Positions 17,580 through 39,371 are shown, counted from the first letter of the stretch. The stretch is DNA of 64,000 bases from Alphaproteobacteria bacterium (GCA_041396705.1 JAWKYB010000003.1:28985-92984); one strand, 5' to 3'. The notes: a model not told the origin generated them from the letters alone. Program-made: numbers and translations.

Positions 17580-18359
<780 letters not shown>

Positions 18360-19070: not shown

Positions 19071-19079
19071 CGCCGGCCC

Positions 19080-19745: not shown

Positions 19746-19796
19746 GCCGTGCGCAGGCGGCGGCCGGGCGCGCGGACCGCCCGGCCGCGCAGCTCG

Positions 19797-20708
19797 TCAG
19801 GCGTACTCGACCGGGAAGCCGGTCCGCGGCGGCGGCACGTCGGCGCCGAACCACTTCTTGAACGAAGCCTGGTAGCTGAGGAAATCGACTCCGGTCATCG
19901 CCTCGTGCAGCACCGAGTTGACGAAGTTCAGCCAGACCTGATCGCCGGGTTTGACCGCGGCGGCGTAGGAGTTCGGCATCCAGCCATAGCCCGAATCGAC
20001 ATAGCGGTCCGGGAACTGGGCAAGCAGCCAGCCGATGGTCGACTGGTCCAGCGCCGCCGCGTGGGCGCGGCCGGAGTTGAGCGCCTGGATTTCGGCGTCG
20101 ACGCTCTCATACTGGTCGACCTTGGCATCGGGCAGCGCCAGACGGATCCAGTCCTCGATGAACACGTTCTGCAGCGCGGAGACGGTGATGTCGGCGCCGC
20201 CGGCCTTGAGCTGGTCGTAGGTCTGGATGTCCTCGCCCTTCATGAGCATGAGGCCGACGCCTTCGCGGTAGTACGGAATGGTGAACTCGACCTGCTGGGC
20301 GCGCCCCGCCGTCACCGTCATGAACTGGAAGATCACGTCGACCTTGTCGGTGGCCAGGTTCGGGATGCGGGCGTCGGAGGCGCCGATCACGAACTCCACT
20401 TTCTGGTCGTCGTCGAACAGGCCCTTGGCCAGCAGCCGGGCCATGTCGATGTCCATGCCCTGCAGGCCGCCCGCCGCGTCCTCGAAATGCCAGGGCGGGT
20501 TGGTGCTGCCGGTGCCGACGATCACGTGGCCGCGCTCGAGCACCGCCTGCAGCCGGCCGCCGGCCGTCTGGGCCGCTGCCTTGCGGGCGCTGACCCCGAG
20601 CCCGGCCGCACCGGCGATCGCGGCGGCGCCCGCCACGCCCAGCGACGACAAGGTCAGCATGTCGCGCCTGTTGACGCCGTCTCGGTCACGCTCTGGCTTT
20701 TCGGTCAT
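19797..20708 (-). CDS. Amino-acid ABC transporter substrate-binding protein with a Tat signal.
   Basis: MTEKPERDRDGVNRRDMLTLSSLGVAGAAAIAGAAG is a twin-arginine signal. The mature part has the SBP family 3 fold. Confidence 0.8.
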   Translation of the reverse strand: MTEKPERDRDGVNRRDMLTLSSLGVAGAAAIAGAAGLGVSARKAAAQTAGGRLQAVLERGHVIVGTGSTNPPWHFEDAAGGLQGMDIDMARLLAKGLFDDDQKVEFVIGASDARIPNLATDKVDVIFQFMTVTAGRAQQVEFTIPYYREGVGLMLMKGEDIQTYDQLKAGGADITVSALQNVFIEDWIRLALPDAKVDQYESVDAEIQALNSGRAHAAALDQSTIGWLLAQFPDRYVDSGYGWMPNSYAAAVKPGDQVWLNFVNSVLHEAMTGVDFLSYQASFKKWFGADVPPPRTGFPVEYA

Positions 20709-21344
20709 GGCTGAACCTCCCCTGTCATGCCATTCGCCGCCATGGCCGGCGGCCATCGCCGACAATGCACCGGGCCGCAGCACGCGGCAAGCGCTGCCCG
20801 AGCGGGCCGCACCGGCCGCCGCAGCGCATCGGCCGGAACCCGGTCGCAATGCAGCACTGCGCGCGCGGGACCGCGTCGAGGAAAACCGCGCAATGCTCAA
20901 AATGGATGACCGGCGCGAATACTACCCGATCGGGTAGTTTATCGGTTAACTACGTTGCGGCGTCAGATTGCGCGTGTGGAATGCCACATTTTCACTGCTC
21001 ACATTCGTGTGACATTCGCCTAAAGAAACTGTCATTACGATCTGATAAGGTGTAACACAGCGACGGGGGATTTCGGTTAGCATCCTGACCGCTGGCACGG
21101 TGTCCCGCCCGCGCAAACCGTTGAAATGACGGTATATGCGGGGCGCGGACGCATGATGCACGGTAGCGGAGACGAGCCGGATACCGGGGCAGGGTTCGCA
21201 CATTTCGCGCCCTGCCGAGCCACTGCGAAAGGAGGTGCCATCGCGAGGGCAGTCACGTTCATAAGTACGCCTAAATTGGTCGGTACCGCTGTCGGCGGTG
21301 CCAATTGGCATTGATCGTTCGTTCCCTGGGGGGGGGTACACGCA
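20709..21344. promoter_or_regulatory. 636 bp intergenic region upstream of the ABC operon (leftward) and of the LuxR gene (rightward).
   Basis: An AT-rich patch at 20940-21060 carries the inverted repeat TGTGGaatgCCACA (20975-20988) and direct repeats ACATTCG at 21001 and 21012, plus related ACATTTT and TCATTACG. Confidence 0.4.
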
Positions 21345-22196
21345 ATGCGACAGTTAGTCGTTCTGGAGCCGAGCAGGCTCGTCCGCGAGGGTATCTCGCA
21401 TCTGTTGGCCGAACACGGCTATGCGGTCGTCGAACAGACCGCCGTCAACGATCCGGACCAGGATCCGGTATCCGACGACAGCATCGATCTCGTCCTGAGC
21501 GAGCTGCCCGGTCCGCGCTACGACATGACCGAGTGGCTGAAGCGAATCGCGGCCTTCTATCCGAAGGCCAGGATCGTGCTGTTGACCGGGCGCTGCGACG
21601 ATCCGGACACGTTGCGCGAGGCGCTGGCTTGCGGCGCCTTCGGCTATATCGACAAGGATCTGTCTGCCGACGCGGTATGCGCCACCATCGACGCGGTGCT
21701 GCACGGGCAGATCGTGTATCCGCGCGAGCTGCGCGACTGCCTGGTCGGCGACGGCCGGGCACGGGCAGGGCGGGCGGCGCCTGCGGTCCGCGTTGCGGTC
21801 GGCGAATCGGTGCCGGCCGTGCGCATCGCGGCGGTCGGCAACGTCGTCGACCTGCGCCAGCCGAACGGCACGGCCGTGCATGCCGGTCCTGTGGCAGCCG
21901 AGGCGGCGGCACCGCGGGTGCCGGCGCCGTCGAAACCCGCGTTGGCAGGCGCGGGCAGGTTGCAGCAGTTCGGGCTGTCGCACCGCGAGGACGAGATCCT
22001 GCGTCATGTGGCGCGCGGCCACGCCAACAAGATCATCGCAAACGAGCTGAACATCAGCGAAGCGACGGTGAAGTCCCATCTGAAGAGCCTGCTGCGTAAG
22101 CTCAACTTCACCAACCGCACCCAGGCCGCGATCTGGGCGGTGAGCCAATATGGCAGCGCCGCCGGCGGCATGGATCCCGGTGCGCGCACCGCGTGA
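21345..22196 (+). CDS. LuxR/GerE-family transcriptional regulator with an atypical (aspartate-less) receiver domain.
   Basis: The N-terminus has receiver-like topology but VVLEPS replaces the acidic DD pocket, and DLVLSELPGP lacks the phospho-acceptor Asp. The C-terminal HTH is LSHREDEILRHVARGHANKIIANELNISEATVKSHLKSLLRKLNFTNRTQAAIWA. Confidence 0.75.
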   Translation: MRQLVVLEPSRLVREGISHLLAEHGYAVVEQTAVNDPDQDPVSDDSIDLVLSELPGPRYDMTEWLKRIAAFYPKARIVLLTGRCDDPDTLREALACGAFGYIDKDLSADAVCATIDAVLHGQIVYPRELRDCLVGDGRARAGRAAPAVRVAVGESVPAVRIAAVGNVVDLRQPNGTAVHAGPVAAEAAAPRVPAPSKPALAGAGRLQQFGLSHREDEILRHVARGHANKIIANELNISEATVKSHLKSLLRKLNFTNRTQAAIWAVSQYGSAAGGMDPGARTA

Positions 22197-22345
22197 ACCG
22201 GTCCGGGCCCAGCACCCGGGCGCACGAATCCGAACCGGCCGGACGGGGCCCTTACTGGTTGCCGTCCGGCCGGCGGAGGACGCGGGACATGCAGCGATCC
22301 CGCGTGTGGCGTCGGCCGGCGCCGTGCGCCGGCCTGCGGTCCGGG

Positions 22346-22855
22346 CTAGCGCGACTCGTCGGCCGGGCCGATCTGCAGCACCGCGGCCTGCTGCACCCAG
22401 GCGTTGACCGGCGAGGGCTGGTGGCCGCGCAGGATCCAGCCCTGTGCCGGCACCGGCAGGCCGGAGGCCATCGCGGTCCATGCGTCGATCGAGGCGGCCG
22501 GGTTGGGAATCATGCCGACGCCGATCGAGCCGGTTTCCGCCAGCGCATGGTAGTTCCAGCCGCGCAGGCTGCGGCCGCCGGCGCCGAGAATGGTCGAGGT
22601 GCGCGAGCGGACCACGGCCAGGCCGTTGGCGCCGCGCTGCACGTCGACCAGCGCGCCGCTGGAATCGCGCAGGAAGAACTCCGGCCGGTTGCCGGTCAGC
22701 TGCTCGTCGATGATGGCCTCGCGGTAGCCCGCGCTCATCCCGACCGACCCGCCGCCGCGGCTGAAGTTGAACGGCTCGTTGAACAGCTGGGCCTGCGCGG
22801 GCGCGACCAGCGCGCCGGCCGCCAATGCGATGCCGGCGACAAGGACCTTGAGCAT
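22346..22855 (-). CDS. Secreted protein, 169 aa, with signal peptide MLKVLVAGIALAAGALVAPAQA and a CsgF-like mature N-terminus (paralog A).
   Basis: Strong RBS: AAAGGAG, 7 nt, ATG. The mature protein starts QLFNEPFNFSRGGG. It has curlin-like SxxxxxQxGxxNxxA segments. Confidence 0.6.
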   Translation of the reverse strand: MLKVLVAGIALAAGALVAPAQAQLFNEPFNFSRGGGSVGMSAGYREAIIDEQLTGNRPEFFLRDSSGALVDVQRGANGLAVVRSRTSTILGAGGRSLRGWNYHALAETGSIGVGMIPNPAASIDAWTAMASGLPVPAQGWILRGHQPSPVNAWVQQAAVLQIGPADESR

Positions 22856-23452
22856 GGGGGTACTCCTTTGGTGTGCAATCAGCTCCGGGCTTTGCCGGTT
22901 CCCCCATAGGTATTCAACCAAAGGGGGAGGTTCAAGGAAAATGCAGATCGCAGACCGGCAGGTAATGCGTTCAAAGTGTTAGTGTTTTTATTCTACCGCG
23001 CCACCGGCGAATCCGCGAAGCGCTGAGGAATCAAGGCCCGCCGCCTGATGTGGACGCGCTGCGGCCGAGCGGATTCTCTCACATGAAAAATTCTTACCGC
23101 GGCCGCGGCCCTGCAGCCGGGCGCACCGCGACGGACCCGGATTCGCCGGCCGCGGTGCCCGACCGGCTCCTCGGCCCGTCGGAGGGAGTCATCCCTTGGC
23201 ATGAATGCGGCGATCAGCCTTGAGGGCTAGTCAGCAGCGAGGTCATCTTTTGTAGTACAGATCCGGGTGCATGCCGGATCATCCCTTGCGATTAGTACGT
23301 TATCGAAATTGTACAAACTGTCATGATTGCTATGATAGAAAACGAACACAAGAAAACGGCGAATTTTCCTGGTGTTCCCTGGGTCTTGGTGGGAATTCGC
23401 TCTCACACTGCATGTCGAATATCACGCGACTCAATGCGTGAGGAGAGGTCCG
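22856..23452. promoter_or_regulatory. 597 bp divergent intergenic region between the CsgF-like gene (leftward) and the CsgG-family gene (rightward), with strongly AT-rich patches.
   Basis: Positions 22960-23000 and 23220-23400 are AT-rich in a roughly 70% GC background. Likely promoters and regulator-binding sites. Confidence 0.45.
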
Positions 23453-24280
23453 ATGCGATTTGGATTGAAGATTGTTGGTCTCGTTGGCCTGGGCCTGGTC
23501 GTTGCCGGCTGCGCGCCGCGGGCGATCTATGGCGATAACGGCGTTCAGCCGCAGTACAGCTTTCCGGTGACCAACAACGACACGCCCTACAGCGCCTGCC
23601 TGCGCAACCTGGCGGCGCTGCCCGGCAACAACCTGCCGGTCATCGCGGTCGGCGAGGTCTCCGACAAGACCGGCCAGATCAACTACGAGGAAAACGGCAA
23701 TGCGCTGAGCCAGGGCGCGGCCGAGATGATGACCAGCGCGCTGTTCCTGAGCGGCAAGGCCAATCTGGTCGAGCGCTTCGACCTGCGCGTGCCGCTGGCC
23801 GAGGTGTCGATGGCGGAGCAGGGCCTGCTCAATCGCGGCATCGACAGCTATCGCGGCCAGATCCCGGGCAGCGACTTCATCATCCTGGGGGCGCTGACCG
23901 AGCTCAACTACAACATCACCAGTGACGGTGCCGGCCTGTGGATCATGGGCATGGGCGCCGGTGCAAGGACAGTCGTAATCAACGTGGCGTTGGATGCGCG
24001 GGTGGTCAACTCGCGCAACTTCACCGTTGTTTACGCGAAGTCACTTCAGAAGCAGGTATATGGCTTCGAAGTGGAGGCCAATGTGTTCCGTTTCTTTGGC
24101 AACACCTTGGTCGAGTTTGACGCCGGTTCGGTGCGGAACGAACCGCTCCAGATCGCCGTCCGCTCCGTCGTCGAGATGTTCGTGTACGGCATGATGACGG
24201 AGGCGTTCGGGCTGCCCACCACGCCTGAGTGCGAGCTGGTGTCGCTCGAATATCCGTACACGTTGCAAACGGAGGACTAA
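23453..24280 (+). CDS. CsgG/HfaB-family outer-membrane lipoprotein secretion channel, 275 aa.
   Basis: The lipobox is LVVAGC. Blocks align with E. coli CsgG: VGEVSDKTGQ / VYNIQDETGQ, GFEVEANVFRF / SYEVQAGVFRF and SVRNEPLQIAVRSVVE / YTSNEPVMLCLMSAIE. The RBS is AGGAGAGG. Confidence 0.85.
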   Translation: MRFGLKIVGLVGLGLVVAGCAPRAIYGDNGVQPQYSFPVTNNDTPYSACLRNLAALPGNNLPVIAVGEVSDKTGQINYEENGNALSQGAAEMMTSALFLSGKANLVERFDLRVPLAEVSMAEQGLLNRGIDSYRGQIPGSDFIILGALTELNYNITSDGAGLWIMGMGAGARTVVINVALDARVVNSRNFTVVYAKSLQKQVYGFEVEANVFRFFGNTLVEFDAGSVRNEPLQIAVRSVVEMFVYGMMTEAFGLPTTPECELVSLEYPYTLQTED

Positions 24281-24284
24281 GTCA

Positions 24285-25034
24285 ATGCAGCGTAAGCATC
24301 TGTTGGCCGCGGCGAGCGTGATCACGCTCGCCACGGGCCTGGCGGCGCCGTCCGCCCAGGCTTTCGATAGGGTCTGGTGGGACTGGAACCTCGATGTCGA
24401 CACGAAGGTCGACGTCAGGGTCGACGTCGACATCAACGTCGATCCCAAGGGCGCGGTGATCTCCGAGACCGACCAGTACTTCAAGGGCTCGCAGGAAGCG
24501 ACCGCGAAGATCGGCGACGTCTATGTCGATCCGAAGGGCTATCACCTGGACGGTGCCACCGACCTCGGCGAGGTCAACAACGTGGCGGCCGCGCTCGGCA
24601 ACTCGAACGCGATCACCTCGGACTTCTCCGTGCAGTCCGACGTCGACCAGGATGCCATCGGCACCGCCTGGTACGGCGCCGACTTCGAGGCGACCGCGAA
24701 AGTCTATGACATCGACAATGCGTCGGTCAGCAACGTCGCACAGGCGATCGCGAACTCGAACTCGATCACCGTCGACCCGCTGCGCGAGCATGGCTGGTAC
24801 CACAGCAGCTCCGACGACGCGCTGATCATCAGCAATGTCGAGCAGTCGGCCTATGCCAACGGCAGCGCCTACGCCTCGGTCTACGACGTCACCATCCGTG
24901 GCTTCGGCGACCTCGGCTCCGGTGACAACGAGCTGAACCGGGCTCTGGTCACCAACTCGGCGATCGCCGCCGGCAACGTGAACAACATCACCCTGGTGAA
25001 CGGCGCCATCGCCTTCCCCGATCAGGACAACTGA
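24285..25034 (+). CDS. Secreted curlin-like repeat protein, 249 aa. It is the candidate amyloid or cargo subunit for the CsgG-family channel.
   Basis: The signal peptide ends AQA. Four or more degenerate repeats SNVAQAIANSNSIT, NNVAAALGNSNAIT, TNSAIAAGNVNNIT and SNVEQSAYANGSAY resemble the NxAxxxQ curlin half-repeat. The gene starts 5 nt after the CsgG stop. Confidence 0.55.
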   Translation: MQRKHLLAAASVITLATGLAAPSAQAFDRVWWDWNLDVDTKVDVRVDVDINVDPKGAVISETDQYFKGSQEATAKIGDVYVDPKGYHLDGATDLGEVNNVAAALGNSNAITSDFSVQSDVDQDAIGTAWYGADFEATAKVYDIDNASVSNVAQAIANSNSITVDPLREHGWYHSSSDDALIISNVEQSAYANGSAYASVYDVTIRGFGDLGSGDNELNRALVTNSAIAAGNVNNITLVNGAIAFPDQDN

Positions 25035-25147
25035 TCGCAGGGCTGTTGCTCGCAACGCAAGGGCAGGGGCGGCGTTCGCGCCGCCCCCGTCCGCCAAGAC
25101 AGGGAATCGCGCTCCCGACCGCGCCGACGGCGCAGGGAGCGAACGCA

Positions 25148-25582
25148 ATGGGGGTAATGATGACTGCACATGCGAAGACGCGGGGCCTGACCGCCGTGAC
25201 GGCGGTTGCCGTTCTCGCCGCGAGCGCCCTGTGGGCCGCGCCGGCCTCGGCCCAGATGTTCCGCGAGCCGTTCTCGTTCGGCGCGCGCAGCTCGGCCAGC
25301 CTGGCGATCTTCATGCGTCAGCGCGACGACGCGCTCAGCGCGTCCTCGTCCGGCGTCGGGATCGGCAGCGGCACCTCGCAGGCGCTGGTCTGCGGCAGCA
25401 GCGGCGGCACCACCGCGTCGACTGCGGCCGGCAACATCACCTGCGTGCTCGCCGGCAACAACACCAACGTCGTGGTGAACAGCCACCAGGACTCGACCGG
25501 CGACCAGAATGCCGATGCCAACACGCACCAGACGGCGGCGGAGACCATCGGCGACATCCTGAACGGCGAGCCGAACGGCTAG
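25148..25582 (+). CDS. Secreted protein, 144 aa, with a CsgF-like mature N-terminus (paralog B).
   Basis: RBS: GGGAG, 8 nt, ATG. The signal peptide ends ASA. The mature protein starts QMFREPFSFGARSS and is Gly/Ser/Thr-rich with 2 Cys. Confidence 0.55.
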   Translation: MGVMMTAHAKTRGLTAVTAVAVLAASALWAAPASAQMFREPFSFGARSSASLAIFMRQRDDALSASSSGVGIGSGTSQALVCGSSGGTTASTAAGNITCVLAGNNTNVVVNSHQDSTGDQNADANTHQTAAETIGDILNGEPNG

Positions 25583-25777
25583 CGGTCGTACGCTCGCGGC
25601 CCGCGGCTCGGCGCCGCAGGCAGCATTCGGGTCAGTCCGGCGTCGCGCACGGCACCGCAGGGTGCGGGGGCAGATGGGCGGCAGCGCGGCAATCGGCGCT
25701 GCCGGCGACGACCGGCCGGGCCCGGTACGCAAAGCCGAACCGGGATCGCATGCCCGGAGCACCGGAGGAGGAACCAG

Positions 25778-26173
25778 ATGCGCCAGATCGTCATCCTGTC
25801 CATGCTGCCGCTGCTGGCGGGCTGCGGCCTGCCGCCGGCGGTCGCCATCGCGTCCTATGCGGTCGACGGCGTGCTGCTGGCCGCAACCGGCAAGACCACC
25901 AAGGACCATGCGCTGTCGGTCGCCATGCAGCAGGACTGCAACATGCTTCACGTCATCGCCGGCGAGTCGATCTGCCAGGACTACGAGCCGACCCAGCGTG
26001 CGGCGATGGCGATGGCGTCGAGCGGGCCGGGCGAAGAGGCGCTGACCACCACGTCCGACGGGCGGATCATCCGGGTGGCGGCGCAGCCGACGCCGTCGCT
26101 CGACGGCGGCCTGATCGCGGCGGCGCCGCGTGCCGGCCAGGCTGCCGCCGGCGATGCGGCCGCCGCGCACTAG
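25778..26173 (+). CDS. Small lipoprotein, 131 aa, last gene of the cluster.
   Basis: RBS: GGAGGAGG, 6 nt, ATG. The lipobox is LLAGC. Two further Cys are present. Confidence 0.55.
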   Translation: MRQIVILSMLPLLAGCGLPPAVAIASYAVDGVLLAATGKTTKDHALSVAMQQDCNMLHVIAGESICQDYEPTQRAAMAMASSGPGEEALTTTSDGRIIRVAAQPTPSLDGGLIAAAPRAGQAAAGDAAAAH

Positions 26174-26211
26174 GCGCAGGCAAAGCGAACCGAGCTGGCC
26201 GGGCGGCAAGT

Positions 26212-26586
26212 ATGGAACACAACACGAGAGCGCGGCCGGGACCGTCGGGCGAGGAGCCCCGCCGGTCGCCGGCGCCGGAGAGAGGGGCAATGGGCGCGGG
26301 CGAGGGATCCCGGGCCGAGACGGGGCGCCACCGGCGCTTCACGCCGGAAGAGATCGTCAAGATGCTGCGCGAGGCCGATGTCCGGATCAGCCACGGCGAG
26401 AGGGTCGGCGCCATCTGCGCCGACTTCGGCGTCTCGGAGCAGAGCTACTACCGCTGGCGCCGTCGCTATGGCGGCCTGCGCATCGACCAGGCCCGCCGGA
26501 TGCGGCAGCTGGAGCGGGAGAATACGAGGCTGCGCAAGCTCGTCGCGCTGCTGACTGCCGACCGCGAGCAGCACGGCGGCGCCTGA
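26212..26586 (+). mobile_element. IS3-family (IS407-like) transposase OrfA remnant. There is no OrfB or DDE domain downstream.
   Basis: RRFTPEEIVKMLREADVRISHGERVGAICADFGVSEQSYYRWRRRYGGL...LERENTRLRKLVALL shows the HTH plus leucine zipper typical of IS3 OrfA. The ORF stops and unrelated genes follow. Confidence 0.7.
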
Positions 26587-27539: not shown

Positions 27540-28352
27540 CTATTGCACGCGGGCGCGCAGCCGGTCGGTCAGGTACTCCATTGCCAGCACGACGACGAAG
27601 ATCGCCAGCATGATCGTCGCGGCGTTGGGGTATTGGAACAGATCGAAGGCGACCTTCAGCTCCTGGCCGATTCCGCCGGCGCCGACCAGCCCCAGCACCA
27701 CCGACGATCGCACCGCCTTCTCAAGCGCGAACAGCCCGGTGTTGATCATCGACGGCGCCGCATCGGGCAGGATGGCACCCGTCAGGATCGACAGGCGGTT
27801 GGCGCCGATCGCCGACAGCGCCAGCTGCGAATCCTTGTCGGCATCCTCCATCGCCTCGGCGAAGAACCGGCCGCAGAAGCCGATGGTGTCGACCACGATG
27901 GTCATCGTGCCCGCCGTCGGACCCAGCCCGACCGCGACCACGAACAGCAGCGCCCAGACCAGGTCCGGCACCGTGCGGAACAGCGAGACCAGTGCCTTGC
28001 CCAGATAGGCGAATGGACCGACCGGCGAGACGGCGCGCGCCGACAGCCAAGCGACGGGGACGCTGGCGGCGACGCCGATCGCCGTGCCGACCACGGCGAT
28101 CTGGAAGGTCTCGACCAGCCGGTCGAGGATGCGCAGCAGAAACCCCTCGTCCAGGTTGGGCGGCAGCATCCGGTCGAGCAGCCGCCCCAGGCTGGGCAGG
28201 CCGTCGGCCAGTCGCTGTGGCGACGGCGCGACATCGCCAAGCGACGCGATCACCACGGCGACCGCAGCCAGCAACAGGGTGAAGGCGACCGGCGACGGCG
28301 CGCGCAGCCGCGGCGGCGCGCCTGGCGTCCGGCCGCGCGGAACCTCAGCCAT
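27540..28352 (-). CDS. phnE: Phosphonate ABC transporter permease PhnE.
   Basis: PhnE-type TM protein. The ATG overlaps the phnC stop within ATGGCTGA. Confidence 0.8.
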   Translation of the reverse strand: MAEVPRGRTPGAPPRLRAPSPVAFTLLLAAVAVVIASLGDVAPSPQRLADGLPSLGRLLDRMLPPNLDEGFLLRILDRLVETFQIAVVGTAIGVAASVPVAWLSARAVSPVGPFAYLGKALVSLFRTVPDLVWALLFVVAVGLGPTAGTMTIVVDTIGFCGRFFAEAMEDADKDSQLALSAIGANRLSILTGAILPDAAPSMINTGLFALEKAVRSSVVLGLVGAGGIGQELKVAFDLFQYPNAATIMLAIFVVVLAMEYLTDRLRARVQ

Positions 28353-29145
28353 TGAAGGTGCCCGCGATCATGCGGTCGGTTACGGCCATGGTCGGGCTGT
28401 CGAAGTGCAGTCGGCCGCCCCGCAACGCCAGCACGCGGTCGGAAAAGGCGAGCGCGTGTTCGATGTCGTGGGTGGTGAACAGCAGCGTGATGCCGTGCGT
28501 CCGCGCCAGGGCCGCGAACAGGTCCATGACCTCGCGGCCGGCCGCCGGGTCGAGGCTCGCGGACGGCTCGTCGGCGATCAGCAGTCGCGGCTGGCGCACG
28601 ATCGCCCGAGCGATCGCCACGCGCTGCTGCTGTCCGCCGGACAGGGTGTCGGCCCGGTGACCCGCCCTGTCGGCAAGGCTGACCGCCTCCAGGGCCGCCA
28701 GCGCGTTGCGGCGCCACGCGTATGGCGCGGTCGTCTGGCAGAAGCCGCGCCAACTGCCCGGCGTGCCGAGCATGCCGTGCACGACGTTGGACAGCACCGA
28801 CCGCCGCCGGACCAGCCCGTGGTGCTGGAACACGAAGCCGGTCTGCCGGCGCAGGCGCGCACGCTGGGCGGATGTCGGCGTCGCGCCGAACCGTTCGCCC
28901 AGGGTCTCGACCGTGCCGCGGGAGATCGGCACCAGGCCGATCAGACATTTCAGCAGCGTCGACTTGCCGGACCCGTTCGGCCCGATCAGGGCGACACGTT
29001 CGCCTGCGCCGATGGTCAGGCAGACATCGCGCAGCACCGGCGCGACGCGCCCATAGGCCTTGTCGAGGTTTGCGGTGCTGACGATCGCGCGGTCCGTGGC
29101 GGTCGGGCCCGGTGCGGGCGGTTCCGCCGGCGTGGACAGGCGCAC
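28345..29145 (-). CDS. phnC: Phosphonate ABC transporter ATP-binding protein PhnC.
   Basis: Walker A GPNGSGKSTL, LSGGQQQRVAIARA and LLIADEPSASLDP are present. The start is a GTG at 29145 or 29157. Confidence 0.8.
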   Translation of the reverse strand: MRLSTPAEPPAPGPTATDRAIVSTANLDKAYGRVAPVLRDVCLTIGAGERVALIGPNGSGKSTLLKCLIGLVPISRGTVETLGERFGATPTSAQRARLRRQTGFVFQHHGLVRRRSVLSNVVHGMLGTPGSWRGFCQTTAPYAWRRNALAALEAVSLADRAGHRADTLSGGQQQRVAIARAIVRQPRLLIADEPSASLDPAAGREVMDLFAALARTHGITLLFTTHDIEHALAFSDRVLALRGGRLHFDSPTMAVTDRMIAGTFNG

Positions 29146-29171
29146 CTGCCTGCCCACGCCCGGGGGCGCGT

Positions 29172-30029
29172 TCAGTTGCCGACGAACGCGTCGAAGGTGT
29201 CGACGCCGATGGTGCGATACATCGCGCGGACATATTCGTAGTCGGCGTCGTCGATCGCGGTCAGGAAGAAGCCGCCCCGGTACTTGCCGTTGTCCTCGCC
29301 GGTCAGCACCGCCTGCATCAGGTCGGCGCCTTCGTTGACGAAGGCGTCGCGCACCGTGGCGACGATCGCCGCGTCCAGATCCGCCCGCGCGACCAGGATG
29401 TCGTTGGGCAGGTCGCGGCCGCGGGCGACCACGGTGAACGCCTGGTCGGGGAAGGCCTCGCGGATCGCGGCCAGGTGGGTGAAGTTCATGCCCACAGCGG
29501 CGACGTCGCCACGGATCATCGCCTCGACCGCGACGTTGCGGGCGATGATCTGGGCCTCGTAGTCGACGCCGTACATCAGGCCCAGGTCCGCCAGCGCCTG
29601 CGCCGGCCCGAGATGCTGCGAGGTGGAGCCGACGGAGCCGAAGGTGACGATCTGGCCGCGCAAGTCGGCGACATCCTTGATCGGGCCATCGGCCATCACC
29701 ACCACCTGGGCGAAATAGTCGGGCCGCTGCCAGCCGGCCACGATCTGCGCGTCGGTCAGCTGGCGGATGACGACATATTCGGCCGGGCCGGTCAGCACCA
29801 GATCGGCCTGGCCCGCGACCATCGCCTCGACCGCTGCCGTGCGCGAGTTGACGGGGTAGAGCTCGATGTCGAGGCCGGTCGCCTTTTCCAGGGCCAGTTC
29901 GAACGCGCCGAACTCCTGCTGCAGGACCTCCAGCCCCTCGATGTCGGTCACGGCGAAACTGACCGGCTCGGCCAGGGCCGGGGCGGCGAGCGCCGCCGTT
30001 GCGGCGGCGGCGAGAATGGCGCGGAACAT
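29172..30029 (-). CDS. phnD: Phosphonate ABC transporter substrate-binding protein PhnD.
   Basis: Signal MFRAILAAAATAALAAPALA and the PhnD-family fold. The RBS is GAGGGGAAG. Confidence 0.8.
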   Translation of the reverse strand: MFRAILAAAATAALAAPALAEPVSFAVTDIEGLEVLQQEFGAFELALEKATGLDIELYPVNSRTAAVEAMVAGQADLVLTGPAEYVVIRQLTDAQIVAGWQRPDYFAQVVVMADGPIKDVADLRGQIVTFGSVGSTSQHLGPAQALADLGLMYGVDYEAQIIARNVAVEAMIRGDVAAVGMNFTHLAAIREAFPDQAFTVVARGRDLPNDILVARADLDAAIVATVRDAFVNEGADLMQAVLTGEDNGKYRGGFFLTAIDDADYEYVRAMYRTIGVDTFDAFVGN

Positions 30030-30053
30030 GATGCTTCCCCTCTTCTGCGGCTT

Positions 30054-30061
30054 GTGTATAC
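30054..30061. promoter_or_regulatory. GTGTATAC, which matches the GntR/HutC-subfamily operator core GT-N-TA-N-AC, in the phnD / phnM divergent region.
   Basis: The site is palindromic. It lies 24 nt upstream of the phnD start codon and 85 nt upstream of phnM. Confidence 0.35.
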
Positions 30062-30146
30062 AGGAACCGTTGCGACCGCCCCTGCATAGCGGGATTCGGT
30101 GACAGCGGCGTGACGTTCCCCCAGGGACGGACGGCAGGAGCGGAAG

Positions 30147-31271
30147 GTGAACTGGATCCTCTCGGGAGGCCGGGTCCTGCGCGGAGACGCGCTGGAGCGC
30201 AGCGACCTCCATCTTTGCGACGGGCTGGTGGCCGAGCGGCCGGCCGCGGATGCGCGCCGGTTCGATGCCGGCGGCATGCTGGTCCTGCCTGGCATCGTCG
30301 ACATCCATGGCGACGGTTTCGAGCGCCAGATCATGCCGCGGCCCAAGGTCAGCTTCGACCTGGAGCTGGCGCTGGCCGAGACCGACCGGCAGCTGGTCGC
30401 CAACGGGATCACCACCGCCTTTCATGGCCTGACCGTGTCATGGGAGCCCGGCCTGCGGTGCCTGGACAACGCCCGGACCTTCGTGCCGACGCTGGAGCGG
30501 ATGCGGCCGGGGCTTGCCTGCGACACTCGCCTGCACCTGCGCTGGGAAACCTTCGCCCTCGATGCGATGGCCGATGTCGAAGGCTGGCTCGACCGCGAAC
30601 CGGCCCCGATCCTGGCCTTCAACGACCACACAACCAGCAGCGCGCAGAATGGCCGCCTGGCCAGCAAGCTCGGGCATTGGGCCGCGCGCGCCGGCGTCGG
30701 CGAGGCGGAGTATGTGGCGCTGGTCGACCGGGTCTGGAGCCGGCGCGACGAGGTACCGGCCGCCATCGAGCGGCTGGCAGGCGTGGCGCGCGATCATGGC
30801 GCGATCCTGCTGGCCCACGACGAGGCGACTCCCGACGACAGGCAGCGCTTCCGCGCGCTCGGCGCCCATGCCTCGGAGTTCCCGGTGACGGTCGAGACCG
30901 CGCGGGCGGCGCGAGCGGCCGGCGAGGACGTCATTCTCGGCGCGCCCAACGTGGTGCGCGGCGGCAGCCATACCGGTGCCTTGGATGCGACCGCGGCGGT
31001 GGCCGACGACCTGTGCTCGGTGCTCGCCTCCGACTACTACTATCCGACGCTGGCCGCCGCGGCGTTCAAGCTGGCCGCCGCCGGGCAGCTGCCGTTCCAC
31101 GCCGCCTGGGCGCTGGTCTCGGCCAACCCGGCGCGGGCGGCGGGCCTGCCAGATCGCGGCGCGCTGTCGGCGGGCATGCGCGGCGATGTCATCGTGGTCG
31201 ACGACGGCGGGGCGCAGCCGCGCGTGGTCGCCAGCTTCGTCGCCGGCCGCAAGGTCTATGAGGCCGGCTAG
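30147..31271 (+). CDS. phnM: PhnM, the C-P lyase pathway amidohydrolase (alpha-D-ribose 1-methylphosphonate 5-triphosphate diphosphatase).
   Basis: LPGIVDIHGDGFERQIMPRPKV and ILGAPNVVRGGSHTG...LASDYYYPTLAAAAFKLA align closely with E. coli PhnM. RBS: AGGAG, 6 nt, GTG. Confidence 0.85.
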   Translation: MNWILSGGRVLRGDALERSDLHLCDGLVAERPAADARRFDAGGMLVLPGIVDIHGDGFERQIMPRPKVSFDLELALAETDRQLVANGITTAFHGLTVSWEPGLRCLDNARTFVPTLERMRPGLACDTRLHLRWETFALDAMADVEGWLDREPAPILAFNDHTTSSAQNGRLASKLGHWAARAGVGEAEYVALVDRVWSRRDEVPAAIERLAGVARDHGAILLAHDEATPDDRQRFRALGAHASEFPVTVETARAARAAGEDVILGAPNVVRGGSHTGALDATAAVADDLCSVLASDYYYPTLAAAAFKLAAAGQLPFHAAWALVSANPARAAGLPDRGALSAGMRGDVIVVDDGGAQPRVVASFVAGRKVYEAG

Positions 31272-31272
31272 C

Positions 31273-32049
31273 GTGGATGGACCGGATCTGCTGGCGCGGC
31301 TGGCGCTCGCGGGCGGCCCCGCCTTCCGCCCGCGCGGCGAGCGGGCACTGTGGCTGCAGATCTACGACCTGTTGCGCCGGGAACTGACCAGCGGCCGGCT
31401 GCGCCCAGGATGCCAGCTGCCGGGCGAGAACCAGCTTGCCGAGGCCTTCGGCGTCACCCGGGTGACGCTGCGCCGGGCATTGCGGCGCTTGCAGCAGGAG
31501 GGCGTGCTGGTCGCGCGCAAGGGTGTCGGCGTGTTCCTGCGCAAGCCGCCGAGCGTCTATGTGGTCGCCAGCGACCGCCGTTTCGGCGACGCCCTGGTCG
31601 GCGATCACGGCACCGTCGACACGCGGACACTCGGCCTGCGCCGCCGCAAGGCCGGCCGCACGGCCGGCGAACGGCTGTGCCTGCCGGTGGGGGCGCCGAC
31701 CATCGCGCTTCGCCGGCTGCGCCTGCTCGACGGCCAGCCGGTCTACCTGACCGAGAAGCTGTTCCCGGCGGAGCGTTTCCCCGAGTTCGAGGCGTGCTAT
31801 CGCGAGCGCCAGTCGGTCGCCGCTGTTTATGCAGGCCACGGCATCGCCCGCTTCAGCCGGGTGGAGACACGGGTCAGCGGCGGCTTCGCCACGGCGGCCG
31901 AGGCCGAGGCGCTGGGCCTGACGCCGGCGACACCGGTGCTGCGGACCAGCGCGCTGAATGTCGACGAGGCCGGCATCCCCATCGAGTTCAGCAGCGGCTG
32001 CTGGCCGCTGACCATGGTCGAGCTGGTGTTCCGGCAGGGCACCGGCTGA
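31273..32049 (+). CDS. GntR/HutC-family regulator with a UTRA effector domain (PhnF-like).
   Basis: The N-terminal wHTH reads LAEAFGVTRVTLRRALRRLQQEGVLVARKGVGVFL. A C-terminal UTRA domain follows. The GTG start is 1 nt after the phnM stop. Confidence 0.75.
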   Translation: MDGPDLLARLALAGGPAFRPRGERALWLQIYDLLRRELTSGRLRPGCQLPGENQLAEAFGVTRVTLRRALRRLQQEGVLVARKGVGVFLRKPPSVYVVASDRRFGDALVGDHGTVDTRTLGLRRRKAGRTAGERLCLPVGAPTIALRRLRLLDGQPVYLTEKLFPAERFPEFEACYRERQSVAAVYAGHGIARFSRVETRVSGGFATAAEAEALGLTPATPVLRTSALNVDEAGIPIEFSSGCWPLTMVELVFRQGTG

Positions 32050-35495: not shown

Positions 35496-36722
35496 TCAGC
35501 CCTTCAGCAGCGCCTTCAGCTTGAATCCCGGGTCGCCCAGGGCGGCCGGGTCGGGCACCGCGCGGCGTTCGATCAGCATCTCTGCCAGCCTGATCTCGCG
35601 GCCGACCTTGCCGATCGCGCCGAGCGCGCTGGCGGCGACCAGCCGGCCGCCGGCCGCCAGGTGGAACAGCATGACGGCGCCGTCGCCGAGGTCGCGCGCG
35701 ACCGTCTCGGTGCCCGCGTCGACCAGGCCGGCGATCTGCAGGCACAGCTCGTACTGGTCGGACCAGAACCACGGCACCGCCGAGACCGGCTCTGCCGCGC
35801 CCAGCATGTTGCGGGCGGCCAGCGCTCCCTGGTCGTGGCTGTTGCGCCAGGCCTCCAGCCGGATGCGCCGGCCGTCGTACAACGGATGCGGGAACGAGCA
35901 GCAGTCGCCGGCGGCCAGGATGTGCGGATCCGCGGTCGCCAGCGTCGCGTCGACCCGGATGCCGTTCTCGACGGCCAGGCCCGCCGCCTCGGCCAGGTCG
36001 GTCCGCGGCACGGCGCCGACGCCGGCGATCGCCGCGTCGCATGGCACGACCGCGCCGTCGCCGAGCATCACGGCGTCGCTGCCGACCTCGGCGATCGTCA
36101 CGCCGGCGCGCAGGTCCACGCCCGCCGCACGGTGGCGTGCAGCCAGCATGTCGGCCAGCGTCTGCGGCACGCCGCGGGTCAGGATGCGCGGCGCGGCCTC
36201 CAGCAGCACCACCGCGGCGCCGCGGATGGCGGCGCTGGCCGCCAGCTCCAGCCCGATGAATCCCCCGCCGATCACCGCCACACGGGCGCCGGGCCGCAGC
36301 GCGGCGCGGATGGCACGCGAATCCTCGTGCCGGCGCAGATAGAGCACGCGGTCGGCGCCGGCACCGTGCAGCGGCAGGCGCCGGGCCTCGGCGCCGGTGG
36401 CCAGCAGCAGGCGGCGATAGCCGACGCCGGTGCCGTCGTCGAGCGCCACCCGCGCGGCGCCGCGGTCGATGGCGACGGCGCGGCGGCCGGCAAGGTGGAC
36501 GATGCCATGCTCGGCGCATTGCGCCTCGCTCAGCGCCAGCTTCGGTCCGGGATGCCCGTCGGCGGTGATCGCGTCCTTCGACAGCGGCGGCCGTTCGTAG
36601 GGAAGGTGCGCCTCTTCGCCGATCAGCGTGACCGGTCCGCGCCAGCCGGCTTCGCGTAGTGTCACGGCTGCGCGCGCGCCGGTCTCGCCGGCGCCGACGA
36701 TCACCATGCCGTCGTCGCTCAT
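35496..36722 (-). CDS. FAD/NAD(P)H ferredoxin reductase (oxygenase-coupled, putidaredoxin/rubredoxin-reductase type).
   Basis: MVIVGAGETGARAA binds FAD and VAVIGGGFIGLELAASA binds NAD. The C-terminal dimerisation domain is present. Confidence 0.85.
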   Translation of the reverse strand: MSDDGMVIVGAGETGARAAVTLREAGWRGPVTLIGEEAHLPYERPPLSKDAITADGHPGPKLALSEAQCAEHGIVHLAGRRAVAIDRGAARVALDDGTGVGYRRLLLATGAEARRLPLHGAGADRVLYLRRHEDSRAIRAALRPGARVAVIGGGFIGLELAASAAIRGAAVVLLEAAPRILTRGVPQTLADMLAARHRAAGVDLRAGVTIAEVGSDAVMLGDGAVVPCDAAIAGVGAVPRTDLAEAAGLAVENGIRVDATLATADPHILAAGDCCSFPHPLYDGRRIRLEAWRNSHDQGALAARNMLGAAEPVSAVPWFWSDQYELCLQIAGLVDAGTETVARDLGDGAVMLFHLAAGGRLVAASALGAIGKVGREIRLAEMLIERRAVPDPAALGDPGFKLKALLKG

Positions 36723-36735
36723 CGCGCCGCGCCGC

Positions 36736-37044
36736 CTAGATGTCGATATAGACGGTGCCGTCCTCGACCTTGGTCGGATAGGTCTTCAGGTCGATGCAGA
36801 CGGGCGCGCCCTTGGCCTGGCCGGTCATGTAGTTGAAGCGGCCGTTGTGCTTCGGACATTCGATGATCTCGTCCATGACCAGACCGTCGGCCAGATGCAC
36901 CTTCTCGTGCGTGCACAGGCCATCGGTGGCGAAATAGCGGTCATCCGGCGACCGGTAGACCGCGAAGGTGCGGCCGCCATGGTCGAAACGGATCACGTCT
37001 TCCTCGTCGATCTCGTCTGCGGCGCAGACCTCGACCCAGCTCAT
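36736..37044 (-). CDS. Rieske [2Fe-2S] ferredoxin, 102 aa.
   Basis: CTHEKVHL...CPKHNGRF is the Rieske CxH...CxxH motif. RBS: GGAGA, 6 nt, ATG. Confidence 0.85.
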   Translation of the reverse strand: MSWVEVCAADEIDEEDVIRFDHGGRTFAVYRSPDDRYFATDGLCTHEKVHLADGLVMDEIIECPKHNGRFNYMTGQAKGAPVCIDLKTYPTKVEDGTVYIDI

Positions 37045-37124
37045 CGGCATTCTCCAGGGCGATTGCAGGCAAACGACCGCGCGGCGGATGCGCCGCGCGG
37101 CCGCGGTCAGGGTATTCCTTTTGC

Positions 37125-38195
37125 CTATTCGGCCGGAACCAGTCCAGCGTCGTCCTTGCCCCCCGGCGGGGCCGGCGGCAGCTTGCGGTCGACCCACCAG
37201 TCCGGATTGCGGTGCTGGCGGATCAGTGCCGGGAAGATCTCCCGATAGGCCGCCAGGGTGCTGGGATAGGGCGGCGGGCAGTCGGCCTTGATCTCCTCGT
37301 GCAGCGCCGGCAGGGCGTGGAACGGCACCATCGGGAACATGTGGTGCTCGATGTGGTAGTTCATGTTCGAATAGAGATAGCGGAACACCGGGTTCATGTA
37401 GACCGTGCGGGTGTTCAGCCGGTGGTCGAGCACGTCGTCGGCCAGCCCGATATGCTGGGTCATGCCGAAGAACAGCACCAGCCAGTGGCCGTAGAACTGC
37501 GGCAGCAGGAACATCACGATCGGCAGCAGCGACCACGCGATCAGCGCCCAGGCGATGATTGCCGCCCAGATCGCGATCCACACCCGCGCGGTCCAGAACA
37601 TCCGGTTCCAGTCGGACTCGGGAATGAAATCGCGCTCGTGGTCGCTTACCTTGCCGGCGGCGTGGGCGAACACGCGCATGATGGTCTGGGTGCCGCCCTT
37701 CAGATTGAAGATGGTCAGCACCAGGCCGAGAAAGTCGGGCGGGCGCGGGGTGATGATCTCCGGGTCGCGGCCGACAATGATGGTGTCGGTGTGGTGGCGC
37801 ACATGGCTCCAGCGCCAGACATCGGGCTCGCGGTACAGGAAGAAGCAGGCGAACTGGTAGACGACGTCGTTCAGCCAGTTGGTCTTGAAGCAGGTGCGGT
37901 GGCCGCACTCGTGCCAGCGCGAATCGGCCGAACCGGTGATCAGCGTGCCGTAGACCGGCAGCGTCAGCAGCAGCCACCAGGTGCCCCAGGACCAGACCAC
38001 CAGCGCGCCGGCGGCGAAGACCAGCGCGAACCACAGCCCCTGCCACCACAGGCCCGGCCAATCGCTGCGCTGCATCAGCTCCTTCATCCGCTTGCGCGGT
38101 ACGTCGCATTTGTACCAGTCGGCCGAGACCAGGCCGCGCTCGAAAGCGCGCACCGTCTCGGCACCGTTCAGGCTGTAGTCGCGTCGCACGGTCAT
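37125..38195 (-). CDS. Membrane fatty-acid-desaturase-family di-iron hydroxylase/desaturase.
   Basis: Three His boxes HECGH, HVRHH and HIEHH, with multiple TM segments. RBS: GGGGAGAG, 6 nt, ATG. Confidence 0.8.
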   Translation of the reverse strand: MTVRRDYSLNGAETVRAFERGLVSADWYKCDVPRKRMKELMQRSDWPGLWWQGLWFALVFAAGALVVWSWGTWWLLLTLPVYGTLITGSADSRWHECGHRTCFKTNWLNDVVYQFACFFLYREPDVWRWSHVRHHTDTIIVGRDPEIITPRPPDFLGLVLTIFNLKGGTQTIMRVFAHAAGKVSDHERDFIPESDWNRMFWTARVWIAIWAAIIAWALIAWSLLPIVMFLLPQFYGHWLVLFFGMTQHIGLADDVLDHRLNTRTVYMNPVFRYLYSNMNYHIEHHMFPMVPFHALPALHEEIKADCPPPYPSTLAAYREIFPALIRQHRNPDWWVDRKLPPAPPGGKDDAGLVPAE

Positions 38196-38352
38196 CGCGC
38201 ACTCTCCCCAGCGTGCGCCTGCCTTCGGCAGGGTCGTCTGTCTAAGTAATAGGCGAAGCCGCCCGCGCAATCAATGCGGCGATGACGGAACCCATCAAAT
38301 CAATCAGCTCTTGACGGCAGGAACCATCAAAAACCATCAGACCGGGCCGGCG

Positions 38353-39300
38353 TCACGCATCGTTGGCGCTGCGCCTGCGCTTGTGGGCGACGAGGGCCAT
38401 CAACTCGCGGTCGCGCCAGCGCGTGCGCGCGGCGATGCGGTCGCGCGGCAGGCTGGCGCTGCGCTCCGCCGCGATCCGTTCGGCCAGGGCGGGGCCCCAG
38501 TCGGGCCGGCGCTGCTGCGACGGCCACAGCCGGACATAGATGTCCTGGTAGCGCTCGACGTAGTCGGTCACGCCGCCGGGGGCGTTCAGGTCGATGGTCT
38601 CGAACGGGCCCATGAAGGCCCAGCGCAGGCCGAGGCCGTCGCGGATCCCGACATCGACGTCCTCGGCGCTGGCATAGCCGTCGTCGACCAGCCGGAATGC
38701 CTCCTGCAGCAACGCGCCCTGCATCCGGTTCATGATGAAGCCGGCGAGTTCCTTCTTCATCACGATCGGCACCTGGCCGATGGCGCGCATCAGGGCCGCG
38801 GTGCGCGCGACCGTCTCCTGCGCGGTCCAGGGCGCGGGCACCACCTCGACCGCCGGCACCAGATAGGGCGGGTTGATCGGGTGGGCGACCACGCAGCGCG
38901 CACCGCCGGACAACCCCTCGGAAAAGGCCGAGGGCAGGATCGCCGAGGTCGAGCTGGCCAGCACCGTCTCCGGCGCCGCCAGCGCGTCGAGTTGCTGCCA
39001 CAGCGGCCGCTTGACCTCCAGCCGCTCCGGGGCGTTCTCCTGCACGTGGTCCGCACCGTCCAGCGCGTCCTCCAGGCTGGCGGCGACGGCGATGCGCTGC
39101 ATCACCTGCGCTTCGGTCTGGCCGTCGAGCAGGTCGGCCGCGGCGAGGTCGGCCAGCATGGCCGGGATCAGCGCCCGCGAGGCCGCGGCGGCGCCGTCGA
39201 CCGGGTCGTACATCGAAACCGCGCAGCCGCCGCGGGCGAAGCTGATCGCCCATGCCCGCCCGATCAGGCCGGCCCCGACCAGTCCGATTTTCTGCACCAT
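38353..39300 (-). CDS. 3-hydroxyacyl-CoA dehydrogenase family protein (L-carnitine dehydrogenase-like).
   Basis: MVQKIGLVGAGLIGRAWAISFA is a Rossmann motif. The 3HCDH C-terminal domain is present. Confidence 0.75.
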   Translation of the reverse strand: MVQKIGLVGAGLIGRAWAISFARGGCAVSMYDPVDGAAAASRALIPAMLADLAAADLLDGQTEAQVMQRIAVAASLEDALDGADHVQENAPERLEVKRPLWQQLDALAAPETVLASSTSAILPSAFSEGLSGGARCVVAHPINPPYLVPAVEVVPAPWTAQETVARTAALMRAIGQVPIVMKKELAGFIMNRMQGALLQEAFRLVDDGYASAEDVDVGIRDGLGLRWAFMGPFETIDLNAPGGVTDYVERYQDIYVRLWPSQQRRPDWGPALAERIAAERSASLPRDRIAARTRWRDRELMALVAHKRRRSANDA

Positions 39301-39371
39301 GCACCTCCGCCAAGGGTCTAGATTTGCGGCGCCTCGCCGTCGCCGCGCACCATGCACCGGGCCCCGTTGCC

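Follow-up and report, generated by a model that had tools for sequence, protein, structure and literature searches.

A Phosphonate-Type Uptake Cassette with a Predicted Pho Box and a PhnM Paralogue Stands without the C-P Lyase Core Genes in an Alphaproteobacterial Genome Fragment

Gene Content of the Locus

The locus studied here lies on a 64,000-nucleotide stretch of an Alphaproteobacteria bacterium metagenome-assembled genome (MAG; GCA_041396705.1, JAWKYB010000003.1:28985-92984), hereafter called the window, and comprises an importer of the phnDCE type, a PhnM-like amidohydrolase and a PhnF-like regulator (table 1). The initial annotation had described the segment 27540-32049 as a phnDCE transporter with phnM and a GntR regulator but without the core genes of carbon-phosphorus (C-P) lyase, phnGHIJKL. 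The window has about 70% G+C, and reading frames were picked by the G+C content at third codon positions (GC3). All five genes were found intact at these coordinates, with a coding-type GC3 of 0.86-0.89. A gap of 117 bp divides the minus-strand importer genes phnE2, phnC2, and phnD2 from the plus-strand genes phnM2 and phnF2, so the amidohydrolase and the regulator, which passes the PhnF equivalog cutoff, are divergent from the importer as had been claimed. The start of phnE2 overlaps the stop of phnC2 by 8 nucleotides. By the codon table, phnC2 (stop at 28345) may start with GTG at either 29157 or 29145, and phnF2 with GTG at 31273, one base past the phnM2 stop, or else with ATG at 31258.

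Table 1. Genes and predicted regulatory elements of the cassette (positions counted from the first nucleotide of the window)
Feature	Position	Strand	Supporting match or placement
phnE2, single importer permease, 270 residues	27540..28352	-	TIGR01097 (PhnE) 245.5 bits, cutoff 216.7; Pfam BPD_transp_1
phnC2, ATP-binding cassette (ABC) ATPase	28345 to ~29157	-	TIGR02315 top match, 226.9 bits, below cutoff 266.1; Pfam ABC_tran
phnD2, periplasmic substrate-binding protein, 285 residues, signal peptide MFRAILAAAATAALAAPALA	29172..30029	-	Pfam PF12974 (Phosphonate-bd) 116 bits
Putative PhnF2 operator TTGTGTATACAG, core palindrome TGTATACA	30052..30063	none	~25-35 nt upstream of the phnD2 ATG
Pho box-like direct repeat GTGACAGCGGCGTGACG	30099..30115	-	70-86 nt upstream of the phnD2 ATG, pointing toward phnD2C2E2
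phnM2, PhnM-paralogue amidohydrolase, 374 residues, GTG start	30147..31271	+	NF011987 418.6 bits, cutoff 253
phnF2, GntR/HutC-type regulator, 258 residues	31273..32049	+	TIGR02325 (PhnF) 163.5 bits, cutoff 156.8; GntR PF00392 and UTRA PF07702

No lyase core gene was found in the whole window when E. coli PhnG, H, I, J, K, and L were used as tblastn queries. PhnK alone gave a match (26% identity), near 51962, and this was to an unrelated ABC ATPase. In 44 other loci, these queries did recover the orthologues of Alphaproteobacteria, at about 28-79% identity. Pfam scans of most other large open reading frames (ORFs) in the window, inside and outside the flagged span, gave no phn core gene either. 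The reported absence of the core was thus borne out, over 27.5 kb on one side of the locus and 32 kb on the other.

Affiliation of the Amidohydrolase

The strong homology to PhnM that had been assigned to the amidohydrolase holds at the level of the superfamily, but it does not extend to canonical PhnM. In BLASTP comparisons, the window protein was 30% identical to E. coli PhnM and 29% identical to S. meliloti PhnM, while these two share 46%. The TIGR02318 equivalog, which gave 557 bits for E. coli PhnM and 523.5 for S. meliloti PhnM, scored the window protein at 322.9 bits, short of the cutoff (390.55), and six other proteins of its kind at 314-388. These seven proteins match NCBI models of the PRK15446.2-x series, NF011987 being the PRK15446.2-3 subfamily. 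In a neighbor-joining (NJ) tree of 101 sequences, they and their relatives were cleanly split from the canonical family, which was represented by 17 canonical PhnM. By its sequence affiliation, the "phnM" of the window is a member of a deep paralogous family inside the PhnM superfamily, here termed PhnM2, and not a canonical PhnM. The possibility raised initially, that the amidohydrolase clusters outside PhnM, applies in this narrow sense: the protein falls in a separate deep family, but within the superfamily. Among plasmid records, 233 of 235 matches of PhnM2 were below 60% identity, with S. meliloti pSymB and E. coli PhnM at about 28-29%. A search at NCBI returned one MAG protein (Alphaproteobacteria bacterium) identical at 100%, the next relatives being only 66% identical.

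The window protein has all of the 38 positions that are conserved in both the PhnM and PhnM2 clades. Among them are H54 and D56 (HxD), E59, R65, R132, E134, D160-H161, and H224-D225, together with E244, N268, R271, S274-H275, and S295-D296-Y297. Every catalytic signature residue is therefore kept, and the metal and active-site residues, which the initial annotation had wanted checked, are intact. Only six positions are fixed differently between the families (I50/L, G55/T, F70/W, H93/D, N159/M, and R232/V). The AlphaFold model of PhnM2 is confident (predicted local distance difference test, pLDDT, 91.7) and has an amidohydrolase fold. A sequence search against PDB chains gave zero matches at E<=1e-3, and a fold search with the model retrieved nothing closer than generic amidohydrolases, namely dihydroorotase, allantoinase, and NagA, at 12-17% identity.

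Predicted Regulation of the Cassette

We aligned 24 orthologous phnD2/phnM2 intergenic regions. The window region contains a Pho box-like repeat, which reads GTGACAG-CGGC-GTGACG on the plus strand and CGTCAC-GCCG-CTGTCAC on the minus strand. The pattern RTGACR-N5-RTGACR occurs twice in the 64 kb, where 0.13 matches were expected. It is exact in 12 of the 24 orthologous regions and present with at most one mismatch in 20 (0.01 and 0.15, respectively, in shuffled sequences), and the direct repeat keeps a fixed distance from phnD2 and a single orientation across them. The PHO box of E. coli consists of two direct repeats with the core CTGTCAT at an 11-nt period (PMC4415409). Read on the phnD2 strand, the window repeat consists of CTGTCAC-type repeats with an 11-nt period, that is, it has the PHO box form. 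By this predicted PHO box, correctly placed upstream of the operon, the cassette would qualify as a member of the phosphate (Pho) regulon. A scan of the region for a sigma-70 consensus promoter found nothing, as expected if the promoter is PhoB-dependent.

The second element is a CTGT-N4-ACAG palindrome between the Pho box and the phnD2 ATG. It was found in all 10 regions with a PhnF gene and in none of the 13 without one; the window copy has one mismatch. The candidate operator thus co-varies with the gene for PhnF2, a PhnF by equivalog score and by GntR/UTRA architecture. PhnF2 shares 47-54% identity with the regulators that occupy the same position in 11 related cassettes, but only about 30% with the PhnF of E. 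coli and with core-linked PhnF proteins. Control by a PhoB box and a PhnF box has been dissected experimentally at the A. tumefaciens PphnG promoter (PMC11494704), and the predicted motif pair of the window cassette resembles it. We infer that the cassette would be activated on phosphate limitation and would be repressed by PhnF2 until an effector arrives.

Importer and Binding-Protein Pocket

The ATPase PhnC2 is 43% identical to E. coli PhnC. As to PhnCDE importer membership, the permease passes the PhnE equivalog, and the ATPase misses the PhnC equivalog even though this model is its top match. The binding protein is more divergent. It misses the equivalogs TIGR01098 (86.8 bits; cutoff 112.05) and TIGR03431 (PhnD, 68.6 bits; cutoff 261.1), and only PF12974 is passed. 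The gene had been named phnD, but its product is only a distant relative of PhnD, being 23% identical to that of E. coli.

We mapped the contact residues of E. coli PhnD onto 26 cassette-type binding proteins. Tyr93 and the loop Ser127-Thr128-Ser129 are invariant. Tyr47 is replaced by Arg in all 26 proteins and His157 by Arg in 22, the window protein having both; Glu177 is lost, and Asp205, which binds the amine of 2-aminoethylphosphonate (2-AEP), is kept in 26 of 26. Hypophosphite, phosphite, methylphosphonate, 2-AEP, and glycerol phosphates are each bound by members of the binding-protein family (PMC12718374), and at the positions compared the residue combination of PhnD2 matches none of them.

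It could be supposed that the importer takes up phosphite or hypophosphite, like PtxABC or HtxBCDE, and feeds the known phosphite-oxidizing side activity of C-P lyase or an unlinked oxidase. The three best solved relatives of PhnD2 are indeed the phosphite binders PtxB 5jvb, 5o2j, and 5lv1, with E values of 2e-15 to 1e-10, as against only 1.5e-4 for E. coli PhnD 3p7i. However, PhnD2 has low identity to PtxB and carries Arg in place of two head-group ligands, and neither the window cassette nor those of annotated relatives contain or adjoin a ptxD- or htxA-like gene. In PtxB, HtxB, and marine PhnD an aromatic residue makes a P-H...pi contact (PMC12718374). If the conserved Tyr of the PtxB motif PQYPW is that residue, its position appears to be taken by an invariant Asp in the cassette-type proteins, at the Asp205 position of PhnD. 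Phosphite uptake is accordingly improbable. The pocket speaks against phosphite; a phosphorus compound with more negative charge, which may carry an amine, would fit it better.

Genomic Context of the PhnM2 Family

A single scan of GTDB species genomes gave 80 PhnM2 loci (species representatives) at 47-64% PhnM2 identity. Each locus was mapped with three protein sets, from the window, from the E. coli phn genes, and from the S. meliloti phnCDEE-DUF1045-phnM-phnN unit. A C-P lyase cluster holds PhnM2 in 44 of these loci: 39 have it in a phnGHIJKL cluster without a divergent window-type importer beside it, and in 5 a window-type cassette (phnE2-C2-D2 divergent from phnM2) directly abuts the core. 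Another 16 loci carry a window-type cassette that is core-free across the locus, 7 have PhnM2 beside a canonical importer (phnCDE) or DUF1045 on short contigs, and in 13 there is no phn neighbor at all. The usual layout within a cluster is of the Bradyrhizobium type, phnLKJIHG / phnF / phnEEDC <-> phnM2-DUF1045. Of the 44 core-cluster loci, 15 also show a canonical PhnM within the stretch read, and many of the remaining ones stop at phnL, where one of the loci (L023) has the canonical gene.

The cassettes that abut the core (L029, L032, L082, L083, and L084) have the same architecture as that of the window. The most compact one, L084 (1-11113), reads phnN / DUF1045-phnLKJIHG / phnF / phnE2C2D2 / phnM2 and has no second PhnM or importer within 10 kb; L082 (1-10628) follows the same gene order up to the contig end. 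Both suggest that PhnM2 can act as the sole PhnM of the pathway.

The subclade of the window in the NJ tree comprises Minwuia, Rhizobiaceae, Ancylobacter, and Terrihabitans. Every cassette former in it stands alone, and the sole member outside a cassette is a PhnM2 gene without importer (L015). Two of the 16 stand-alone cassettes adjoin DUF1045-phnM-phnN. The flanks of the subclade cassettes are unrelated from one genome to the next, and the genes downstream in the window do not recur at other cassettes; the unit therefore consists of four or five genes. PhnE2 is 62-76% identical to the permeases of the stand-alone cassettes of its own subclade and 54-69% identical to those of other stand-alone cassettes.

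Among the loci without phn neighbors, the PhnM2 gene starts near 10001 in each of those described here. In two Bosea loci (L069 and L078), it comes after the urease accessory genes ureF, ureG, and hupE/ureJ. Of three further ones (L061, L076, and L015), two unrelated loci have it directly after a gene for a luciferase-like monooxygenase, and one after a TctA gene.

The missing core could also mean that the locus is a functionless remnant, decaying after the core of a complete phn operon was lost or translocated, and a fragment of an IS3-type transposase and a stretch of lower G+C do lie a few kilobases upstream (~18-26.6 kb). Nevertheless, the five ORFs are intact with coding-type GC3, every family-invariant residue is kept, and the unit and its regulatory motifs are conserved across Rhizobiaceae, Ancylobacter, Terrihabitans, and Minwuia. 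Since this conservation extends to 50-76% protein identity in differing contexts, the detached unit appears to be under purifying selection, and decay is very improbable.

Location of the Lyase Core in Related Genomes

For the cores of relatives, PhnI of Shinella oryzae was used as bait, and the contigs of the matches were then examined. The S. oryzae cluster has the canonical order phnF / phnGHIJKL ... phnCDEE-DUF1045-phnM-phnN. Two Shinella MAGs contain both a stand-alone cassette and an unlinked core. In GCA_033795365.1 the cassette is on JARYGU010000007.1 and phnF-phnGHIJKL on JARYGU010000025.1; in GCA_034285035.1 they are on JASWJH010000054.1 and JASWJH010000315.1, respectively. Among the 120 matches listed for Shinella PhnI, all at least 81% identical, none was on a Minwuia, Ciceribacter, Ancylobacter, or Starkeya chromosome. 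The Peteryoungia chromid that bears the cassette has a single PhnM-type place and hence lacks a canonical PhnM.

In Rhizobiaceae it is normal for phn genes to be scattered. On S. meliloti pSymB, phnCDEE-DUF1045-phnM-phnN occurs without a core gene within 12 kb on either side, and the Shinella zoogloeoides plasmid p1_Teo12 has DUF1045-phnM-phnN alone, with no other phn gene within 14-15 kb. The initial annotation had left two options, a core elsewhere or recruitment of PhnM to another pathway. Because PhnM2 lies in lyase clusters in 44 of 80 loci, because five cassettes of this type are physically linked to a core, and because cassette and core co-occur unlinked in Shinella, where phn units are scattered anyway, the comparison favors a core encoded elsewhere over recruitment to an unrelated pathway.

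On the other hand, the cassette may be a self-contained phosphorus-scavenging system that works without C-P lyase. The importer would then take up an organophosphorus ester, an anhydride, or an anionic aminophosphonate, and PhnM2 would carry out a different hydrolytic step, on a substrate other than the ribosyl-phosphonate triphosphate (RPnTP), that releases phosphate or an assimilable product. In M. smegmatis, phnF/phnDCE imports phosphate. Other importers of the PhnD family are likewise known without C-P lyase, such as those of GpxB for glycerol-1/3-phosphate (PMC12718374) and of picocyanobacterial PhnD1 (PMC10284923). Such an independent role would fit the movement of four or five genes as a unit between unrelated contexts with their own regulator and Pho box, a subclade made up of stand-alone cassettes and one orphan gene with no member beside a core, the family members without phn neighbors, and a PhnD2 pocket unlike those of the characterized PhnD and PtxB aligned with it. 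However, PhnM2 genes occur for the most part within C-P lyase clusters, the identical cassette architecture abuts the core in five lineages, the Shinella cassette co-occurs with a core, and the full catalytic and phosphate-binding signature of PhnM is kept with six family-specific substitutions only. We therefore regard this explanation as possible but considerably less probable than a link to C-P lyase. Rather less probable still is its more specific form, in which the whole stand-alone subclade is independent of C-P lyase, PhnD2C2E2 imports an anionic organophosphorus compound that has gone unrecognized and that, from the Arg/Arg/Asp pocket, may be a phosphonate with amino and carboxy or diphospho substituents or else an anhydride, and PhnM2 catalyzes a new hydrolysis, giving a two-step route gated by Pho and by an effector.

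Proposed Function of the Module

We propose, with a probability of roughly 60%, that the locus serves the C-P lyase pathway as an accessory module for uptake and activation, which is under Pho and PhnF control and has become detached from a core encoded elsewhere in the genome. In its best-supported form, the module would consist of a second importer with altered specificity and of a PhnM isozyme that acts on the product of PhnI. Under phosphate limitation, PhoB would bind the Pho box and drive phnD2-C2-E2, provided that an effector has freed the palindrome just downstream of the promoter from the PhnF-type repressor encoded after phnM2. The importer would serve for a phosphonate, or for a phosphorus compound close to one, and would differ from canonical PhnD in specificity, its predicted pocket being richer in Arg and retaining the amine-binding Asp. 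PhnM2 would then hydrolyze the 5'-triphosphate of the ribosyl-phosphonate adduct made by PhnI, either by the reaction of canonical PhnM, which splits RPnTP into PRPn and pyrophosphate, or by one adapted to such substrates, and the product would pass to PhnJ, encoded elsewhere in the genome.

Several points weigh against this proposal. The placement of the core elsewhere in the MAG of the window is inferred from relatives; no core gene lies within 27-32 kb of the window cassette, the other 14 cassette loci of its subclade plus Peteryoungia and Ciceribacter likewise have none within 10 kb, and the co-occurrence of a cassette with an unlinked core is limited to the two Shinella MAGs, which are bins rather than closed genomes. 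The 13 of 80 PhnM2 genes that have no phn neighbor count in the same direction, and the neighbors of these orphans hint that the family also functions outside phosphonate metabolism. PhnD2 lacks two of the six residues with which E. coli PhnD contacts phosphonates. Moreover, two PhnM types in one cluster are presumably not redundant, and it follows that PhnM2 need not catalyze the exact PhnM reaction. We found no biochemical or genetic data on any PhnM2 in the literature searched, where the role of a second phnM has been termed undefined (PMC3840354).

Neighboring Genes and Other Features of the Window

The genes downstream of the cassette encode a DgaE/SelA-like pyridoxal phosphate (PLP)-dependent enzyme, a bicupin, a Lactamase_B_3 hydrolase of the metallo-beta-lactamase (MBL) type, a ferredoxin reductase, and an FA_desaturase-type oxygenase. 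Their description as an unrelated set is upheld: the DgaE/SelA-like, bicupin, and MBL genes were considered as pathway members and rejected, having no counterpart beside the cassette in 86 related loci. No other cassette has a homologue at its side, and the genes for the SelA-like enzyme, the bicupin, the MBL hydrolase, and the oxygenase are therefore neighbors by accident. A PehA-like sulfatase was also considered as a partner, but is best treated as a coincidence: one is encoded 13 kb downstream of the cassette here and another at a distance of 5 kb in Minwuia, the two are only 32% identical, and no other cassette has one nearby.

The only other Pho box-like repeat of the window, ATGACGGTCTTGTGACA (45331-45347), lies within a divergent region (45256-45473) between an ABC importer resembling PotABCD/PhnSTUV (41540-45255, minus strand) and the PehA-like hydrolase of the phosphonate monoester/sulfatase family (45474-47012, plus strand; NF045661 598 bits, below the cutoff of 900). 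The true ATG of the hydrolase is at 45474, and that of the importer's binding protein, which has a twin-arginine translocation (TAT)-type signal, is at 45255. The repeat is oriented as in the phn cassette and is 76-92 nt from the minus-strand ATG, a similar distance. This importer and hydrolase look like a second predicted scavenging pair controlled by phosphate starvation, 13 kb from the first unit. Between the two predicted Pho-controlled units runs a minus-strand series (35496-40678) of a ferredoxin reductase, a membrane oxygenase of the FA_desaturase/AlkB type, a PRK06129-type 3-hydroxyacyl-CoA (carnitine-dehydrogenase-like) dehydrogenase, and a 235-residue protein without family match, which is not conserved beside the cassette elsewhere.

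On the other side of the cassette, the C-terminal part (~26300-26586, plus strand) of an ORF at 25231-26586 resembles the helix-turn-helix OrfA of IS3-family transposases, and the G+C content is 0.65-0.67 at 18000-26000 versus 0.70-0.73. There may be a remnant of an insertion element about 1 kb from the phnE2 end of the cassette, with an OmpA-like lipoprotein gene in between. At 59-4942 (plus strand) there is an ORF of 1627 residues with a coding-type GC3 of 0.92 and no Pfam match at E<=1e-6.

Prior Knowledge and Significance

Nothing at the locus contradicts current understanding, and the cassette is already present in many sequenced genomes, to which the window adds one member. A review by Hove-Jensen et al. 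in 2014 is reportedly a source for the observation of two phnM genes. Second copies of phnM had been noticed earlier, and their role was left undefined (PMC3840354; PMC9381506). In the literature we found no description of PhnM2 as a distinct family, and none of a cassette of importer, PhnM2, and PhnF2 with a Pho box, an operator, and an altered pocket.

The present analysis sets PhnM2 apart as a family of its own, which as a rule supplies the second copy in the phn clusters of Alphaproteobacteria, and shows that one of its subclades travels with its own importer, repressor, and predicted Pho box. At present, databases put one name and one EC function on two deeply diverged families. Surveys that use phnM as a marker of C-P lyase consequently mix them. 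In a marine survey, phnM co-occurred less with phnI and phnJ (PMC9381506). The cassette is also a testable unit for the phosphorus compounds that soil and marine bacteria can use beyond the substrates of canonical PhnD, and it may help to explain why many clusters retain two PhnM enzymes. If the module simply serves C-P lyase, it amounts to an ordinary split regulon and a caveat for annotation. If instead independence from C-P lyase were true, it would represent a route that is now misannotated as "PhnM" across Alphaproteobacteria.

Comparison with Known Systems

PhnM2 of the window and E. coli PhnM belong to one family of the amidohydrolase superfamily (COG3454 / PRK15446), have in common the residues fixed in both clades, and carry the same NCBI product name (alpha-D-ribose 1-methylphosphonate 5-triphosphate diphosphatase). 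In contrast to E. coli PhnM, encoded in phnCDEFGHIJKLMNOP, the window protein is only 30% identical, scores below TIGR02318, and falls in a separate deep clade. Its gene is not beside phnL or phnN; it is the divergent partner of an importer and is followed by its own PhnF paralogue. The position in or next to phnGHIJKL that is typical of canonical phnM is thus not seen at the window, whereas 44 of the 80 other PhnM2 members have it.

The split phn regulon of rhizobia, as in S. meliloti pSymB, A. tumefaciens CHLDO, and Shinella oryzae pZ25, consists of phnFGHIJKL(O) and phnCDE1E2-DUF1045-phnM-phnN. There too, a PhnM-type gene accompanies the importer rather than the core, the units can be unlinked, and a PhoB box and a PhnF box are used (PMC11494704). 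However, the genes of the rhizobial unit all run in one direction and encode two permeases, a true PhnD, a canonical PhnM (79% identical in Shinella and S. meliloti), DUF1045, and PhnN, whereas the window unit has PhnM2, one permease, a divergent binding protein, and its own PhnF in a divergent layout, without DUF1045 and PhnN. The second phnM-like gene of alphaproteobacterial and marine clusters (phnM1, Martinez et al.) is, judging by its description, probably the same phenomenon. In the Bradyrhizobium/Rhodoplanes type, phnEEDC <-> phnM2-DUF1045, PhnM2 is 48-58% identical to the window protein. The published cases of a second phnM are in or beside the core, while the window subclade is detached and has a dedicated importer and regulator.

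As for the binding proteins, PhnD2 shares with PhnD, PtxB, and GpxB the PF12974 fold, the Ser-Thr-Ser loop, and the equivalent of Tyr93 for the phosphorus head group. Its specificity residues are Arg/Arg/Asp, in contrast to Tyr/His plus Glu177/Asp205 in PhnD and Tyr/His plus the aromatic residue in PtxB, and they also differ from the tail pair Arg223/Thr247 of GpxB (PMC12718374). The PtxABCD and HtxA-E systems combine the aromatic P-H...pi residue with a linked phosphite dehydrogenase or hypophosphite dioxygenase, whereas the cassette of the window has a predicted Arg/Arg/Asp pocket and is linked to PhnM2 and PhnF2.

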